Of a stretch of 4,767 nucleotides of DNA, positions 1-4,767 are shown piece after piece. Positions within the stretch are counted from its first letter, which is position 1; each line of letters begins with the position of its first letter. This DNA comes from a virus (taxonomy: Duplodnaviria > Heunggongvirae > Uroviricota > Caudoviricetes). The position numbers were made by a program, and so were the translations under genes. The notes beneath the pieces are model-generated. The model was not told the origin of the DNA. It did no database searches and saw only the letters and a list, made by a program, of their open reading frames with translations. Location of the stretch: the IMG/VR virus record IMGVR_UViG_2660238346_000024. One strand, 5' to 3'.

Positions 1-87
1 CCCCCGGAGTCCTCTTATCTTGCTGGGCGGTGGAAGACGTTGCCCTTTCAGGTGGCAATAATGAACTGCATGGGTAATGACCGGATC

Positions 88-111
88 GTAAGCGACTCGT
101 CAGAACCGTAT
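88..111. repeat. Left terminal inverted repeat of the IS66-family element (GTAAGCGACTCGTCAGAACCGTAT)
   Basis: Starts with GTAA. Aligns with the reverse complement of 2762..2785 (GTAACCGGCTCATTTAAACCGTCT) at about 17 of 24 positions, sharing GTAA, CG, CTC and AACCGT blocks. Aligned by eye, not computed. Confidence 0.55.
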
Positions 112-117
112 TGATAT

Positions 118-1689
118 TTACTGAGAGCTCAGATCAACTTTCCAGGGCAACAGATCGCGTACCCGGTTTGCCGGCCAGTCCTGGATATGTTCAATGACGT
201 AACGCAGCCACTTTTCTGGCTCCACATTGTTCAGACGGCATGTGCCGATCAGCGAGTACAACACCGCCGCATGTTCACCACCGCTGTCGGAACCCACGAA
301 CATCCAGTTTTTCCGGCCTACGGCCACTCCCCGTAAGGCGTTCTCTGCGATGTTGTTGTCGATTTCCACCCAGCCATTACTGCAGTACACGTTCAGTGCA
401 TCCCACTGTTTCAGCAGGTATGCGAACGCTTTTGCCGTATCTGACTGACGCGACAGTGTTTTCATCTGTTGCTGTATCCAGTCATACAGTGACTGCATCA
501 GTGGCGCGGCTCTGGCTTTTCTTGCCGCCAGACGCTGTTCTGCTGAACAGCCCCGGACCTCTGCCTCGATGGCATACAGTTCACCGATACGCTGCAGGGC
601 TTCCGTGGTGATGTAGGTGGGCGCTCTTGCATGCACATCGTGGATTTTTCTCCGGGCATGAGCCATACACGCGGCTTCCGTTATTCTGCCGGATTCGTAT
701 AACTCCCGGTAACCACCGTAAGCATCGGCCTGAAGCACACCGCTGTAACCGGCCAGGTGATTTTGTGGATGGATACCTTTCCGGTCCGGACTGTACGCGA
801 ACCAGACCGCCGGGGGCATCTGTGAACCGGCGTTACGGTCATCACGGACGTAGACCCACAGCCGGGCTGTCCGGGTTTTACCGCTGCCCGGCTCCTGGAC
901 CGGGACGGGGATATCATCAGCATGGACTTTACCGGGCATCAGCACATACTGGCGCAGGACGTCATACAGCGGCTCCAGCAGTTCAGCAACAGCACCTGTC
1001 CAGCGCCCAAGTGTGGCACGGCTCAGCTCCACTCCCTGACGACGGTATATTTCTGACTGGCGGTATAACGGCAGATGGTCTGCATATTTCCCGGTGACAA
1101 CATGGGCCAGAAGCCCCGCTCCGGTATAACTGCGTGCAATTGGTTTTGAAGGTACTGGTGCCTGCACGATATGGTCGCACCGGCAACAGGCCTGTTTCGG
1201 ACGTTGTGTTTCGATAACCTTAAAGGCGCTGCTGATAAGCTCCAGTTGCTCTGACACATCACATCCCAGAGAACTGAGTTCACCACCACAGGCAGGACAG
1301 CATTCCTCTTCCGGCCGGATAACCCGGGTTTCACGGGGAAGTGAGGCCGGTAACGGTTTACGGGCTGAAGACTGGCGCAGGGCGGATGGCAGTACCGGGT
1401 CATATTGCTCACCCAGCGTTTCCGCCATTTCTTCCTGAAGTGCGCTGATTCGCTCCTGTGCTTCCTGTATCTGCCGTTCGGTTTTTGCACGAAGTTTTTC
1501 TGAGCTTTTACCGAACTGCATACGTTGCAGTTTCGCAACCAGCGCCTTCAGCCGGTTGATTTCGGAAGCATAAGCCGCCACCCGCTGTGAGAGCAGGCGG
1601 TTGTATTAAGCCATCTGGCGGATGGTGTCCTGTTGCGTCTGCAACAGTGCCCGCAGGCGGGCGTTCTCATGAGCAAGTGAGGTGTCCAT
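118..1689 (-). pseudogene. tnpC: IS66-family transposase TnpC, interrupted by an in-frame TAA (plus-strand 1606..1608) 27 codons after the ATG at 1687..1689; the longest intact frame is 118..1581 (487 aa from a GTG)
   Basis: The 487-aa ORF has an N-terminal coiled-coil or leucine-zipper-like region, a Cys cluster (CCPACGG...CCRCDH) and a DDE-type core, typical of IS66 TnpC. Translating upstream in the same frame gives MDTSLAHENARLRALLQTQQDTIRQMA[13 protein letters not shown] and then the ORF. The ATG at 1687..1689 lies 4 nt after the tnpB stop with GAGGA just upstream, so it is the natural coupled start. The full frame is 523 codons, the normal TnpC size. Confidence 0.85.
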
Positions 1690-1693
1690 ATCC

Positions 1694-2056
1694 TCACTTT
1701 ACAACGGGATATATGCGGATTCCAGCGCGTTCCGTTCGTTTCGGGTGCTTCCAGTTGATACCTTCAAGAAGCATGGATAACTGAGCCGGAGTAAGGTGCA
1801 CCTTGCCGTCACGGGTGACTGGCCAGACGAAGCGGCCCAGCTCCAGGCGTTTGGTGAAGAGGCACAGTCCGTCACTGTCAGCCCACAACACTTTTATCTG
1901 GTCACCCCGGCGTCCGCGGAAGATGAACAGGTGTCCGGAGAACGGGTCATCCTTCAGGACGTTCTGAACTTTTGATGCCAGGCCGTTAAAGCCATTTCGC
2001 ATATCGGTGATACCTGCAACCAGCCAGATACGCGAACCTGCAGGTAGAGATATCAT
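1694..2056 (-). CDS. tnpB: IS66-family accessory protein TnpB (IS66 Orf2-like), 120 aa
   Basis: Size and position between tnpA and tnpC. The start ATG overlaps the tnpA stop by 1 nt (ATGA), indicating translational coupling. The sequence MISLPAGSRIWLVAGITDMRNGFNGLA... resembles IS66 Orf2-like proteins. This is the IS66 TnpB, not the IS200/IS605 RNA-guided TnpB. Confidence 0.88.
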   Translation of the reverse strand: MISLPAGSRIWLVAGITDMRNGFNGLASKVQNVLKDDPFSGHLFIFRGRRGDQIKVLWADSDGLCLFTKRLELGRFVWPVTRDGKVHLTPAQLSMLLEGINWKHPKRTERAGIRIYPVVK

Positions 2057-2448
2057 CAGTGGTTGCTCCCTTTTATTTCGCGGATAAGTGTCTGTAATAA
2101 CGCCGGCGTCAGTTTACCTTTAAGCCTGAGAGTTCCGGCCGGCAGAACCAGCTCACAACACAGACTGTCGGACGGTGTATTTATCTGCTCTGGTTCCTGT
2201 GCGGGGGCCGGGATTTTATTATCCGGCTCCGGCGTTAACGTCACGGGAAGCAGTGCCGGCATATTTTTTCCGGAAGGCAGCAGTCCACCTTTCCGGTATT
2301 GATGGCGCCAGTTGAAGAGCAGGTTATCGTTGATTCCGTTTTCCCGGGCGGTCTGCGCCACACAGGCTCCGGGCTGCAGTGACTGCTCCACTAAGGCGAT
2401 TTTAAACTCATAAGGGAAGTTGGGCCGCCGGGGACGTTTTTTTACCAC
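2056..2448 (-). CDS. tnpA: IS66-family accessory protein TnpA (transposase HTH_Tnp_1-like), 130 aa
   Basis: The N-terminal segment RPRRPNFPYEFKIALVEQSLQPGACVAQTARENGINDNLLFNWRHQYRKG fits the transposase-8 helix-turn-helix pattern. It is the first of the three canonical IS66 ORFs and its stop overlaps the tnpB start. Confidence 0.82.
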   Translation of the reverse strand: MVKKRPRRPNFPYEFKIALVEQSLQPGACVAQTARENGINDNLLFNWRHQYRKGGLLPSGKNMPALLPVTLTPEPDNKIPAPAQEPEQINTPSDSLCCELVLPAGTLRLKGKLTPALLQTLIREIKGSNH

Positions 2449-2732
2449 GGGGCTTCGGATATAACGGTGCTTTCAGGACGTACGACTGGTACCGTGGAAA
2501 ATTGTACGTAAAGGCAGGCATCAAGTTCCTGCTCCGACATGCCTGCGGGCAAATGCCACGAAAGACCAGCTCTCCGAAAGCGCACGAACATACTACAAAC
2601 TGTTGATTTTGGTACACCCAGGCGACGCCCGGCCACAACCCGGGGTAAATGTTCTTCAAAGTGAAGACGTAAAGCTTCAGTGATCCAGGTCCGGTGTTTC
2701 ATACGATAGTGTCCATTAAAAATGATGGACAT
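2442..2732 (-). CDS. Small helix-turn-helix protein ORF (96 aa; possible start at the internal Met MKHRTW, giving 86 aa) inside the IS upstream of tnpA; probable IS-encoded accessory or regulatory protein
   Basis: Intact ORF between the right inverted repeat and tnpA, overlapping the tnpA start by 7 nt. Contains an HTH-like segment (RVVAGRRLGVPKSTVCSMFVRFRRAG). No strong Shine-Dalgarno sequence is visible, and the family assignment is uncertain. Confidence 0.5.
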   Translation of the reverse strand: MSIIFNGHYRMKHRTWITEALRLHFEEHLPRVVAGRRLGVPKSTVCSMFVRFRRAGLSWHLPAGMSEQELDACLYVQFSTVPVVRPESTVISEAPW

Positions 2733-2761
2733 TATTTTTGTAGAGCCGGAGGAAACAGACC

Positions 2762-2785
2762 AGACGGTTTAAATGAGCCGGTTAC
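2762..2785. repeat. Right terminal inverted repeat of the IS66-family element
   Basis: The reverse complement reads GTAACCGGCTCATTTAAACCGTCT, beginning GTAA. It sits immediately next to the breakpoint in the phage I gene. Confidence 0.6.
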
Positions 2786-3329
2786 TATCCAGCGAGGAAA
2801 AGTACGTGTTCTGTCTGCCGTTATCCGTTACGCGGTAATCCGGTGTTTTTGCCTTCGGGGCCAGCATCTGTGCCACACCGCCCAGTATCATGCTGGCCCC
2901 CAGTGAAAACAGCATCGTGGTGGCAGAAAAACCACCGGCACTCAGGGCTGAACCCCATAACGCCATCGAGGCACCGGCCGTGAAGAAAGAGCCCACGATG
3001 GCTGCCGCCCCCAGCACAATCTGCAGTCCGCCCTTTCCGGCTCCGGCCAGTCGCGGCACAATTTGGATGACCGTTCCCTCACCCAGCTGTTCGTGAAGAC
3101 GGGCGTACACCGCCTCCGGTGCCGTGTCATCACCGGCAATACGTATCTGGTACCAGCCTTCGTTCATCTGACGGCGGAATCCGGGCACCTGTAACGACAG
3201 GGCGCGAATGGCTTCCGCTGCCGTGTTCACATACAGGCTGAGGCGGCGGCCAAATCGTTGTAAATCCCCGTGAAGGCAGATGCGTGCCAGTGGCGGTGAC
3301 GCCAGACAGAATGCGTTCGTCGTTGCCAT
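2769..3329 (-). CDS. I: Lambda-like tail tip assembly protein I, C-terminally truncated by IS insertion; native I sequence is 2786..3329 (181 codons), followed by 5 IS-derived codons and a stop
   Basis: The N-terminus MATTNAFCLASPPLARICLHGDLQRFGRR and the rest closely resemble lambda gpI (223 aa) up to ...QNTYFSSLD. The ORF then reads SNRLI-stop from IS sequence. Base 2786 supplies the first base of the next codon, and the IS GTAA end starts at 2785. Confidence 0.88.
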   Translation of the reverse strand: MATTNAFCLASPPLARICLHGDLQRFGRRLSLYVNTAAEAIRALSLQVPGFRRQMNEGWYQIRIAGDDTAPEAVYARLHEQLGEGTVIQIVPRLAGAGKGGLQIVLGAAAIVGSFFTAGASMALWGSALSAGGFSATTMLFSLGASMILGGVAQMLAPKAKTPDYRVTDNGRQNTYFSSLDSNRLI

Positions 3330-3970
3330 TTTTCGGAATACCTCTCCCGTTTACTCAGTTGTTCAGGCAGATGGTGAAGCAGCTCACCGTTGCCGCAGTA
3401 AATGGCGGCATGATTAGCCACCGATGCGCCGAAGCAGCACAGCAGGATATCGCCCGGCAGTGCAGAGGACAGGGGCACCCGGTAAAAGCCCGTTGCCTCC
3501 ATATTGTCCAGGTAAAGGTTCTGACCGTTGCACCACCAGTCATCCCCGCGATGAAAATCCGGCATATCAATGCCTGCCAGATGGTATGCATCCCGGAACA
3601 GCGTGTAACAGTCCGTCACCCCGTGCGCAAAGCGCCGTCCTGTCAGATGCGGCACACAGCGGAATTTGTGAATGTCACCCCGGCTGACCAGCCACCAGGG
3701 CAGTGCGCTTTTTATCTGCAGCCGCCGGTCAGCCTCGCTCAGCCAGGGCAGACCACCGGGATGACTGTGGACCAGTGCCACAATCTCCCCCTGCATCTCT
3801 GCCCGCAGCCAGTCTTCCGGTGCGATACGAAAATACGCCTCAGGCTCTGCAGAGATATTCACGCACGGCTGGTACTGGTTGCCCTCCGGCGTGCTTATCA
3901 CGAAGCCGCACGACTCCGCAGGCGCACACCGCCGGGCATGCGCCAGAATCGCTGATTCAGTCTGTGTCAT
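3227..3970 (-). CDS. K: Lambda-like tail tip assembly protein K (JAB/MPN metallopeptidase plus NlpC/P60 peptidase domains), 247 aa
   Basis: JAMM motif HSHPGGLPWLSEAD (H-x-H-x7-S-x2-D) is encoded at 3728..3769. An NlpC/P60-type catalytic Cys lies in GVTDCYTLF (codon 3608..3610), with a downstream His in NHAAIY. The 103-nt out-of-frame overlap with the start of I (3227..3329) matches the known K/I overlap in lambda. The start is 5 nt downstream of the L stop. Confidence 0.9.
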   Translation of the reverse strand: MTQTESAILAHARRCAPAESCGFVISTPEGNQYQPCVNISAEPEAYFRIAPEDWLRAEMQGEIVALVHSHPGGLPWLSEADRRLQIKSALPWWLVSRGDIHKFRCVPHLTGRRFAHGVTDCYTLFRDAYHLAGIDMPDFHRGDDWWCNGQNLYLDNMEATGFYRVPLSSALPGDILLCCFGASVANHAAIYCGNGELLHHLPEQLSKRERYSEKWQRRTHSVWRHRHWHASAFTGIYNDLAAASACM

Positions 3971-3975
3971 GGGAT

Positions 3976-4675
3976 TTACTGCGAAAGTTTATTAATGGAA
4001 AGGAAACCGCCAAAATTGCCGACATTCCTGCGCAGTTCACACCCGCGCATGCACTTGCTGCATCTGTCCTTACGGATATCCGTGGTGGGTTTATCGAACT
4101 CATCCGCCACAGCCCCGCCCGTGTAACCACACTCATCAGAGCGGTAGGTCCACATACAGGTGTTCGCCAGCATGATACGACCGGGAAACAGCGCCCCGTC
4201 CGTCTCGGTCGGTGTGGCCAGCACAAACGAGGCCGTCATGGCTGTCAGCTGCGACATCTGCTCCACCACCCAGCGGTCACTCAGCTCCTGCTCCGGGTCC
4301 GCCTCCGGATTGCCCGCAACGAAATTCACCGCATCCAGAAAACGGGCATACACCCGGCGGCGGACCACCGTGGCCCCCACCAGGCTCTGCAAATCCTCCG
4401 CCATTCCGGTGACAAGACCAAACAGATTGGACACCGTCAGCGACGGGCGGGCACTGCTGCCCTTTCCGTTCATCTCAAAGCCACTCCCCTCAATCGGGTA
4501 CGCCTGATATTGCCGCCCCTGCCAGGTCACCGGCTCCCCCTTTTTCATTCAGCTCATTACAGAAAAAATACCGCTCACCGCCCTGTACCGTCAGGTCGAT
4601 TTCCCAGAGCACCACCCGCGGTGACTGCTCTGACTTAACCGACTCGTTCAGACTTTCTTCGTGAATATCCTGCAT
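3976..4675 (-). pseudogene. L: Lambda-like tail tip protein L, disrupted by a +1 frameshift in an A5G5 homopolymer tract (plus-strand C5T5 at 4536..4545); the two pieces are ORFs 4490..4675 and 3976..4548
   Basis: The 61-aa ORF begins MQDIHEESLNE...ERYFFCNELNEKG like the lambda gpL N-terminus. The 190-aa ORF continues (MKK)GEPVTWQGRQYQAYPIEGSGFEMNGKG... through to ...NVGNFGGFLSINKLSQ. Joining 46 aa and 186 aa gives 232 aa, the lambda gpL length. The coding strand reads GAAAAAGGGGGAGCCG where the fused reading needs one base fewer. Confidence 0.85.
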
Positions 4676-4767
4676 CAGTTCACCACCTGCTCAATCGTAC
4701 AACTGAAATCACTGTACCTGGCGTTATCTGTGACGCTCCACTCCCGGCACACCACCCTCACCGTCCG
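4675..4767 (-). CDS. M: Lambda-like tail tip protein M, C-terminal fragment; the gene continues beyond the window
   Basis: The minus-strand frame translates to ...VRVVCREWSVTDNARYSDFSCTIEQVVN-stop, resembling the lambda gpM C-terminus (ending ...EQVVN). Its TGA stop overlaps the L ATG by 1 nt (TGATG), as in lambda. Only about 30 codons are present. Confidence 0.7.
   Translation of the reverse strand, partial: RTVRVVCREWSVTDNARYSDFSCTIEQVVN

Follow-up and report, generated by a model that had tools for sequence, protein, structure and literature searches.

An ISCro1 element lacking a target-site duplication between a terminase fragment and a truncated tail gene I: probable joining of two separate insertions in one draft contig

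The stretch of DNA analyzed here, referred to as the window, corresponds to one entire contig of 4,767 bp (CCCD01002330.1 of assembly GCA_000939215.1), in which a copy of the IS66-family element ISCro1 lies between a fragment of a large terminase gene and the 5' part of tail gene I, with no target-site duplication. On balance, this contig is probably chimeric, with two independent ISCro1 insertions, one in each of these genes, having been joined in silico across a multi-copy IS. Each junction on its own is real. By contrast, the link of both flanks to a single IS copy is most likely not real, although the in silico join is something that we infer. The biological weight of the case is small, amounting at most to one decayed lambdoid prophage that took two ISCro1 insertions and may have undergone rearrangement between them, a well-known process. 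The lesson is methodological, in that the lack of a duplication flanking a multi-copy IS is no evidence of deletion when the contig is short and the draft fragmented.

Content of the Window

The source is a draft assembly of more than 2,300 contigs, among which the window is contig number 2330, with the host probably belonging to an ETEC lineage of Escherichia coli. A literature search with the accession numbers returned no match. Along the window, a terL-5' stub on the plus strand is followed by ISCro1 on the minus strand and then by the truncated gene I (I'), K, L and the 3' end of M, also on the minus strand. The features are as follows:

1..87, plus strand: large terminase gene fragment (lambda-type gpA/TerL), codons 41-69, assigned by nucleotide identity to annotated terL; translation PPESSYLAGRWKTLPFQVAIMNCMGNDRI
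80..87, no strand: left outer 8 bp, ACCGGATC, presumably one half of the duplicated target from the terminase-gene insertion; junction also on the separate contigs L019 and L020
88..2785, genes on the minus strand: ISCro1 (IS66 family), 2,698 bp, with imperfect terminal inverted repeats that start with GTAA
118..1689, minus strand: tnpC, DDE transposase, 523 aa; a 523-aa product is called in L008, L007 and L006 (PF13007, PF13005, PF03050, PF13817)
1709..2056, minus strand: tnpB, 115 aa (PF05717 in L007)
2056..2732, minus strand: tnpA, 225 aa in RefSeq copies, here split into ORFs 2442..2732 and 2056..2448
2786..2793, no strand: right outer 8 bp, TATCCAGC, presumably one half of the duplicated target from the gene I insertion; junction also in L006, L007, L009 and L016 (identical to L033)
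2786..3329, minus strand: tail assembly gene I, 5' part (lambda gpI family; PF06805), aligned with intact I of L003 and L004
3227..3970, minus strand: tail gene K, 247 aa, JAB/MPN and NlpC/P60 (PF14464, PF00877)
3976..4675, minus strand: minor tail gene L (PF05100), aligned with L009 and L004
4675..4767, minus strand: tail gene M, 3' end, assigned by location, the end of a PF05939 gene meeting the L start in L004 and L009; runs to the contig end

Positions 1..87 are identical (87 of 87 nucleotides) to sequences in 13 complete E. coli genomes that are annotated as 'phage terminase large subunit', and are in frame with codons 41-69 of WP_001625277.1 and with the gene start in L002, such that the break introduced by the IS falls exactly after terL codon 69. 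Relatives carry PF05876/PF20454. The preliminary description had stated that this segment is not the rest of gene I, and indeed, no minus-strand frame of 1..87 corresponds to that gene, with genome searches placing the segment, on the plus strand, in a lambdoid large terminase gene. This match was initially overlooked because minus-strand frames alone had been considered.

On the other side of the IS, the Lambda_tail_I domain (PF06805) and the gene order L-K-I identify the interrupted gene as encoding lambda tail protein I. The reading frame is cut after ...NTYFSSLD, where intact relatives (L003 and L004) go on with NMIAQGNPMPVPYGEM..., leaving approximately 43 C-terminal codons missing. An exact look-up of the 186-aa ORF in which I' is fused to IS sequence gave no match, and the 153-aa form of the fusion, as called in the deposit, matched only the window's own contig. 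The exact K protein is found on 11 draft contigs, and gene L is frameshifted by one additional base in the C-run at 4536-4540.

Identity and Ends of the ISCro1 Element

The element shares 99.2-99.4% identity over 2.7 kb with RefSeq-annotated ISCro1 copies and resembles other IS66-family members in its length of ~2.7 kb, its tnpA-tnpB-tnpC gene set with a DDE_Tnp_IS66 transposase, and its GTAA-starting inverted repeats. RefSeq annotation names the genes tnpA, tnpB and tnpC in L001, L013 and L014, and Pfam analysis of the IS genes called in L007, L006 and L008 returned PF01527, PF05717, PF13007, PF13005, PF03050 and PF13817. The left end reads GTAAGCGACTCG... and the right end ...GAGCCGGTTAC, with the terminal inverted repeats (GTAAGCGACTCG... 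versus GTAACCGGCTCA...) matching at 22 of 40 positions. ISCro1 is commonly multi-copy, with as many as 26 places in a single E. coli genome and 24 copies in C. rodentium (PMC3072379).

The sequences immediately outside the two ends, ACCGGATC at 80..87 and TATCCAGC at 2786..2793, agree at only 2 of 8 positions, as the preliminary description had noted in reporting no target-site duplication. Duplications of 8 bp have reportedly been established for the IS66 family in work on IS679/IS66, and these are seen in other ISCro1 copies, whereas the window copy as assembled has none. Specifically, five copies in complete genomes or long contigs (L001, L013, L014, L018 and L022) are 2,699 bp long and bear a direct repeat exactly at these ends, namely a perfect 8-bp duplication in L001, L013, L018 and L022 (CCTGCATC, GACTATCT, TAATTTGA and AGATGATC) and a 9-base repeat with a one-base offset in L014 (TACCGGGAT). 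As such, the ends in the window are not misplaced. Moreover, the 30 bp on each side of the IS share no word of 4 or more bases, and no common word of 6 or more bases appears when the ends are slid by up to 12 nt. The idea that the ends were placed wrongly and that a duplication exists at other coordinates, for which no supporting evidence was found, is thus refuted by these two observations and can be considered exceedingly improbable. Absence of the duplication concerns the history or the assembly of the window copy, not the identity of the element.

Junctions in Related Assemblies

An identical right junction (I::IS) was found joined to three unrelated left flanks, in all cases without duplication. 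The left flank is the 87 bp of terminase sequence in the window and L007, 172 bp of pilI (chromosomal island) in L006, and 107 bp of F-type/ETEC plasmid DNA, with 1,880 of its 1,902 matching places lying on plasmids, in L016 (L033). The remaining contig with this junction, L009, ends within the IS. L006 and L007 differ by 1 base across 1.9 kb of tail genes, yet their left flanks differ, and no left flank exceeds 172 bp, even though pilI is single-copy.

The terminase junction is also seen apart from gene I. L019, from the same assembly as L007, covers lysis genes and nu1 as well as terL codons 1-69 and the initial 111 bp of the IS, and shares 198 identical overlapping bases with L007, yet the two contigs were not merged. 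In GCA_000941535.1, contig L020 contains terL-5' followed by an IS with A at base 296, whereas L033 contains plasmid DNA followed by an IS with G at this base and then I'. Therefore, at least two distinct IS copies exist in that assembly, and the I' flank there is not linked to the terminase copy. At IS bases 1839, 2045 and 2554, L006, L009 and L016 have C/G/G, with A/T/T being found in the window and L007. Given this pattern in the I-proximal part of the element, a real crossover would need to have occurred in the last 231 of 2,699 bp.

All four distinct IS-crossing contigs detected in assemblies that have ENA-style accession prefixes of this kind, including L035, which has other flanks, lack a duplication, as opposed to the five of five copies from complete genomes or long contigs that have one. 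Both the terL::IS and the I::IS junctions were absent from each of 5,426 complete E. coli genomes. When the exact observed junctions and the predicted reciprocal junctions were sought in viral, metagenome and species-representative genome collections, only I::IS was found (L016 and L017). The outer halves of the predicted reciprocal IS copy would be ...GATCCGGT and GCTGGATA-I-3'. Such reciprocal junctions are expected under an inversion and equally under two simple insertions. The predicted hybrid protein running across the right end of the IS into terL-3' (MSRLHRIRTINL..., 580 aa), the exact sequence of which would depend on the TerL allele of this lineage, was found neither among the cluster representatives nor among the exact members of the collection considered.

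Geometry Relative to an Intact Prophage

In the intact prophage of JE86-ST05 (L015), window positions 1..87 are found in the forward orientation at 5039-5125 and positions 2788-4694 in reverse at 19715-17805. The two sites are similarly directed and lie 14.6 kb apart, with the terminase gene upstream of I, such that 1..87 is not contiguous with I in this intact relative. In the window, by contrast, terL-5' (plus strand) and I'-K-L (minus strand) converge on the IS. The flanks hence do not keep the original orientation and order that a within-prophage adjacent deletion would preserve, and a simple adjacent deletion of I-3'/J, as first proposed, is therefore excluded. The geometry fits a mis-join as well as an inversion between a pair of IS copies.

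Possible Origins of the Unmatched Flanks

In the case of a mis-join, one ISCro1 would have inserted behind codon 69 of the large terminase gene, with ACCGGATC as target, and another in tail gene I after approximately codon 181, with TATCCAGC as target. A short-read assembler would then have entered the 2.7-kb multi-copy IS from the unique I'-K-L flank and exited on a read-length stub flanking another IS copy. The duplication would be missing because the contig is chimeric, and no conclusion on the loss of I-3' or J is possible from such a window. This explanation is favored because the window is a whole short contig with Ns in its IS, because sibling assemblies offer three alternative left flanks, all short stubs, because of the unmerged L019/L007 overlap, the two copies in GCA_000941535.1 and the confinement of any crossover to 231 bp, and because none of four draft contigs crossing the multi-copy ISCro1 shows the duplication found in five of five other copies. 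The two Ns of the deposit, at 1608 and 1709, both displayed as A in the window, lie within the IS between the two junctions, and suggest that non-identical copies were piled up or that scaffolds were joined there. As in known collapsed-repeat chimeric contigs, the repeat exceeds the likely insert size, contains ambiguous bases and is followed by a read-length stub, while the junction recurs on another contig of a sibling assembly and partner flanks vary among related assemblies.

Several observations argue against a mis-join. The window and L007, from two assemblies, show the same join and identical contig ends; with contig numbers of 2330 and 2326 and the same boundaries, these may represent the same isolate. 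The IS of these contigs departs from the commoner lineage sequence at five bases spread over its full length, which differs from what is expected of a pure many-copy consensus and suggests that a single copy was tracked during assembly; with read pairs reaching from 2554T into the flank, the exit to I' could have been resolved correctly. In addition, the terminase and I-K-L sequences come from the same prophage type, making a real local event plausible, and genuine ISCro1 copies without duplication exist, such as the plasmid copy adjoining a SPATE autotransporter gene, for which three independent assemblies (L029, L031 and L034) show none.

Were the join not made in silico, ordinary IS-IS recombination would otherwise be the explanation. 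Recombination between two IS copies, the alternative offered in the preliminary description, is compatible with the sequence, and could have taken the form of a real inversion through homologous recombination between inverted ISCro1 copies in the terminase gene and in I, an unlikely but not remote possibility. Within one prophage, the 14.6-kb stretch from terL-3' to I-5' would be inverted, whereas with two lambdoid prophages, a larger chromosomal inversion would result; each IS copy would then hold one half of each duplication. Such an inversion exactly fits the geometry relative to L015, involves junctions that both occur independently, and is in line with the join shared by the window and L007. 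IS-IS inversions are, moreover, documented, as in the ISCro4-mediated 0.59-Mb inversion in C. rodentium (PMC3072379), the window resembling recombination of this type in that an IS is flanked by halves of two duplications and neighboring genes are mutually inverted. The C. rodentium rearrangements were, however, shown with paired-end data and PCR, whereas the link across the window IS is unsupported and is contradicted by sibling assemblies, where the joining of I::IS to pilI and to plasmid DNA would call for several further events in near-identical strains, or else reflects unreliable assembly. Furthermore, the four junction sequences equal those of two simple insertions, such that the contig lends an inversion no specific support, and both the 231-bp limit on the crossover and the absence of either junction from complete E. 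coli genomes argue against it.

A real deletion extending from I-3' through J as far as a terminase gene, be it an adjacent deletion by intramolecular transposition of the I copy or recombination between directly oriented copies, is very unlikely. While a deletion would be in agreement with the lack of duplication and of I-3' in the contig, and would leave a single hybrid IS that a short-read assembler could cross, the expected within-prophage product is terL-5'-IS-I-3'-J, and the orientation seen would require a second convergent lambdoid prophage alongside, together with loss of all sequence in between. The two Ns in the window IS and the two distinct copies in GCA_000941535.1 point to more than one copy, and the other left flanks in sibling assemblies likewise speak against a deletion. 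Intramolecular replicative transposition is known to cause adjacent deletions and inversions in the case of IS1, IS26, Tn3 and Mu, events that also leave an IS with unmatched flanks, but a deletion of this type within one prophage is excluded by the flank orientation in the window. Even more improbable is a one-step real join in which the element would have transposed replicatively within the molecule from I to the terminase gene 14.6 kb away, inverting the head-tail module between inverted copies. To our knowledge, IS66-family elements have no established replicative mechanism and, if true, such a join would provide sequence-level evidence on the still unsettled transposition chemistry of this family.

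Variants in the Window and Other ISCro1 Copies

Relative to other copies, the window ISCro1 is 1 bp shorter, has a frameshifted tnpA and two ambiguous bases in the deposit, and lacks a duplication as assembled. The split in tnpA reflects a 1-bp loss in the G-run at 2449-2452, which comprises five Gs in all other copies. Two further apparent gene defects in the IS stem from Ns written as A. The TAA at 1606-1608 in tnpC is an artefact of the A at 1608, and the A at 1709 abolishes the tnpB stop at 1709-1711, giving rise to an apparent 120-aa ORF from 1694. Position 1709 is N in L008 and likewise in L006.

Other candidate matches were rejected. Apparent flank extensions (H12 and H13) arose by chance at unrelated loci. 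Matches to nearly the whole window came down to ISCro1 or another IS66-family element at a different site, which was gene K for EH031 and the I-J interval for ETEC-2264. When the TnpB variant seen in L007 was traced to long contigs, these proved to have in common only the 1839A polymorphism and to be located at unrelated sites. Finally, the ISCro1 copy in pilI of GPEC673, located at a distance of 57 bp from the insertion site in L006 and flanked by a perfect duplication, represents a different insertion.

The Window Is a Complete Contig of a Draft Assembly

Exact look-up of the K protein identified the window as contig CCCD01002330.1 (4767 bp, reverse orientation) of draft GCA_000939215.1. As the two sequences differ only at 1608 and 1709, where N in the deposit appears as A in the window, the window is an entire short contig from a draft of at least 2,330 contigs, organized as follows:

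1..87: left flank
88..2785, minus strand: IS66-family element (ISCro1) with tnpA, tnpB and tnpC
2786..4767, minus strand: lambda-type tail genes I (truncated), K, L (frameshifted) and the end of M

The apparent nonsense codon in tnpC (TAA at 1606-1608, minus strand) is an artefact of N having been written as A at 1608, and the same substitution at 1709 abolishes the tnpB stop codon (1709-1711), yielding an apparent 120-residue TnpB. Both Ns lie inside the IS, within 704-1839, a long stretch free of copy-specific variants; L006, a related contig, also contains an N at 1709. The tnpA gene is split into ORFs 2442..2732 and 2056..2448 by the absence of a G from the run at 2449-2452 (four bases versus five in all other ISCro1 copies examined), a change unique to the window contig and probably erroneous, introduced by assembly or sequencing. 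The frameshift in tail gene L, due to an additional C (coding-strand G) in the run at 4536-4540, is common to contigs L006 and L007 and absent from L009 and L004, and reflects either a real sublineage pseudogene or a systematic homopolymer error.

At the level of individual bases, differences from sibling contigs (704, 1009, 1141, 1839, 2045, 2284, 2506, 2554 and 3063) were nearly all G:C>T:A transversions, some private to the window and some shared with L007. This pattern could be a sequencing artefact of the oxidative-damage type, arising in an assembly of low coverage, or the mark of a mutator lineage. Six synonymous differences from L006, L007 and L009 were clustered in gene K (3641-3752), three of them corresponding to the divergent K allele of contig L016, which suggests mixed reads from paralogous prophages or a short recombination patch.

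The Insertion Sequence Lacks a Target-Site Duplication

The window IS shares 99.2-99.4% identity with ISCro1 copies annotated in RefSeq. In five complete genomes or long contigs (L001, L013, L014, L018 and L022), ISCro1 spans 2699 bp and is bordered by a direct repeat at exactly those ends assigned in the preliminary description, namely, a perfect 8-bp repeat in four cases (CCTGCATC, GACTATCT, TAATTTGA and AGATGATC) and a 9-base repeat with a one-base offset in L014. The octamers outside the window IS, ACCGGATC and TATCCAGC, are equal at 2 of 8 positions, and no word shared between the flanks was found when the ends were allowed to slide. As such, the absence of a target-site duplication, as originally described, is correct and is not due to misplaced ends. 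The mismatch is real within the contig, and the two ends of the IS represent two different insertion events. Overall, the duplication accompanied 5/5 ISCro1 copies from these complete genomes and long contigs, as compared to 0/4 distinct IS-crossing contigs in the set with ENA-style accessions, including a further short contig with unmatched flanks (L035).

The Flanks Derive From Two Prophage Genes

In the window, gene I ends ...NTYFSSLD, where intact relatives run on NMIAQGNPMPVPYGEM... for ~43 further codons. This continuation is not encoded in any minus-strand frame of 1..87, confirming the earlier view that the left flank is not the rest of gene I. Mapping of 1..87, as had been proposed, placed it in lambdoid-prophage DNA, though not in I: its plus strand matches, at 100% identity, codons 41-69 of the large terminase subunit gene in lambdoid prophages from 13 complete E. 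coli genomes, with the IS break falling exactly after codon 69. In the prophage of JE86-ST05 (L015), the terminase site lies 14,592 bp from the I site and has the same reading direction. Window 1..87 aligned to this prophage forward and 2788..4694 reversed; in the window itself, both gene fragments point towards the IS. This geometry matches inversion between two inverted IS copies and also the left junction of one insertion joined to the right junction of another.

Both junctions recur independently in other contigs. The I::IS junction is present in L006 (GCA_000947375.1), L007 (GCA_001373195.1), L009 (GCA_000944435.1) and L016 (the same as L033; GCA_000941535.1). The terL::IS junction was sought by exact look-up of the predicted 77-residue fusion protein (TerL residues 1-69 plus VSDSSEPY), which was found on two contigs:

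L019 (GCA_001373195.1): lysis genes, nu1, the 5' part of terL, 111 bp of IS
L020 (GCA_000941535.1): nu1, the 5' part of terL, 479 bp of IS

Linkage Across the Insertion Sequence

Although each junction recurs, their connection through the IS is less secure; further grounds for doubt are the two Ns inside the IS and the unmatched flanks of all four IS-crossing contigs. Among the window and sibling contigs, a single I::IS junction was associated with three different left flanks, none with a duplication.

Left flanks at the I::IS junction
Terminase, 87 bp: window, L007
pilI of a chromosomal island, 172 bp: L006
DNA almost exclusive to plasmids, with ETEC plasmids as the best matches, 107 bp: L016/L033

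L006 and L007 differ at one base over 1.9 kb of tail genes, yet their IS partners differ. L019 and L007, from the same assembly, have in common an identical 198-base overlap spanning the terL::IS junction, but were left unmerged. In GCA_000941535.1, the 5' part of terL and IS with 296A occupy one contig, and plasmid DNA, IS with 296G and truncated gene I another; this assembly therefore holds at least two distinguishable IS copies, and its assembler made no link between gene I and the terminase copy.

All sibling IS copies share four lineage bases (445C, 1125T, 2063T and 2565A). Five extra variants (296A, 704T, 1839A, 2045T and 2554T) are carried by the window and L007, of which 296A was confirmed beside the terminase gene by L020; the IS adjoining gene I in L006, L009 and L016 keeps the lineage base at each of 1839, 2045 and 2554. 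If this strain and its siblings have similar I copies, a real crossover would be confined to the last 231 of 2699 bp of the IS (prior ~9%), whereas an assembler tracking the variant path would need only a single wrong exit past the last variant. Provided that the terminase copy is the source of all five variants, this pattern favours a mis-join.

The favoured explanation, rather likely, is a chimeric contig joined across a collapsed multi-copy IS. Such a chimera and a real inversion between two IS copies would both yield the same four junction sequences, so that even a complete set of them from this assembly cannot alone separate the two. Inversion, which would account for the converging gene fragments and is a well-documented outcome of recombination between IS copies (PMC3072379), is the less probable reading. 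A real join would also fit the agreement between the window and L007, although their boundaries and contig numbers are nearly equal, such that both may come from one isolate. Likewise, the variant bases span the whole IS, suggesting that one copy was followed, read pairs could in principle resolve the last 231 bp, and genuine ISCro1 copies free of a duplication appear to exist on a plasmid (L029, L031 and L034). Real deletion, which requires two convergent prophages, is very improbable: deletion within one prophage should leave the 5' part of terL, IS, the 3' part of I and J, in that order, an arrangement differing from that of the window. The loss of J raised in the preliminary description is hence unsupported. 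Whether chimera, inversion or deletion, the phenomenon is an ordinary one.

Other Insertions and Prophage Variation

The plasmid copy (L029 5694-8392; also L031 and L034) adjoins a Peptidase_S6 (SPATE) autotransporter gene on a conjugative plasmid. Its unmatched flanks, CAAACTGC and GATCAACG, the left one within an IS3-type orfA, were reproduced in these three independent assemblies, and it looks like a real copy without duplication. The start of pilI, within a type IV pilus gene cluster, was hit independently by ISCro1 at two sites separated by 57 bp: in GPEC673, a chromosome-level genome (L018 4116-6814), where the copy has the perfect duplication TAATTTGA, and at L006 173, in the window orientation. 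In L016/L033, truncated gene I is identical to that of the window, K diverges by ~10% from window position 3413 onwards and, beyond 3945, close to its 5' end, K breaks off into unrelated sequence carrying a P22-type antirepressor gene, reflecting either prophage mosaicism or another mis-join. Finally, a related IS66-family element was seen in L023 and L024 (6800-17100), in an island whose SMODS/AGS_C plus SLATT_6 and QatB/KAP-NTPase genes look like anti-phage defence genes.
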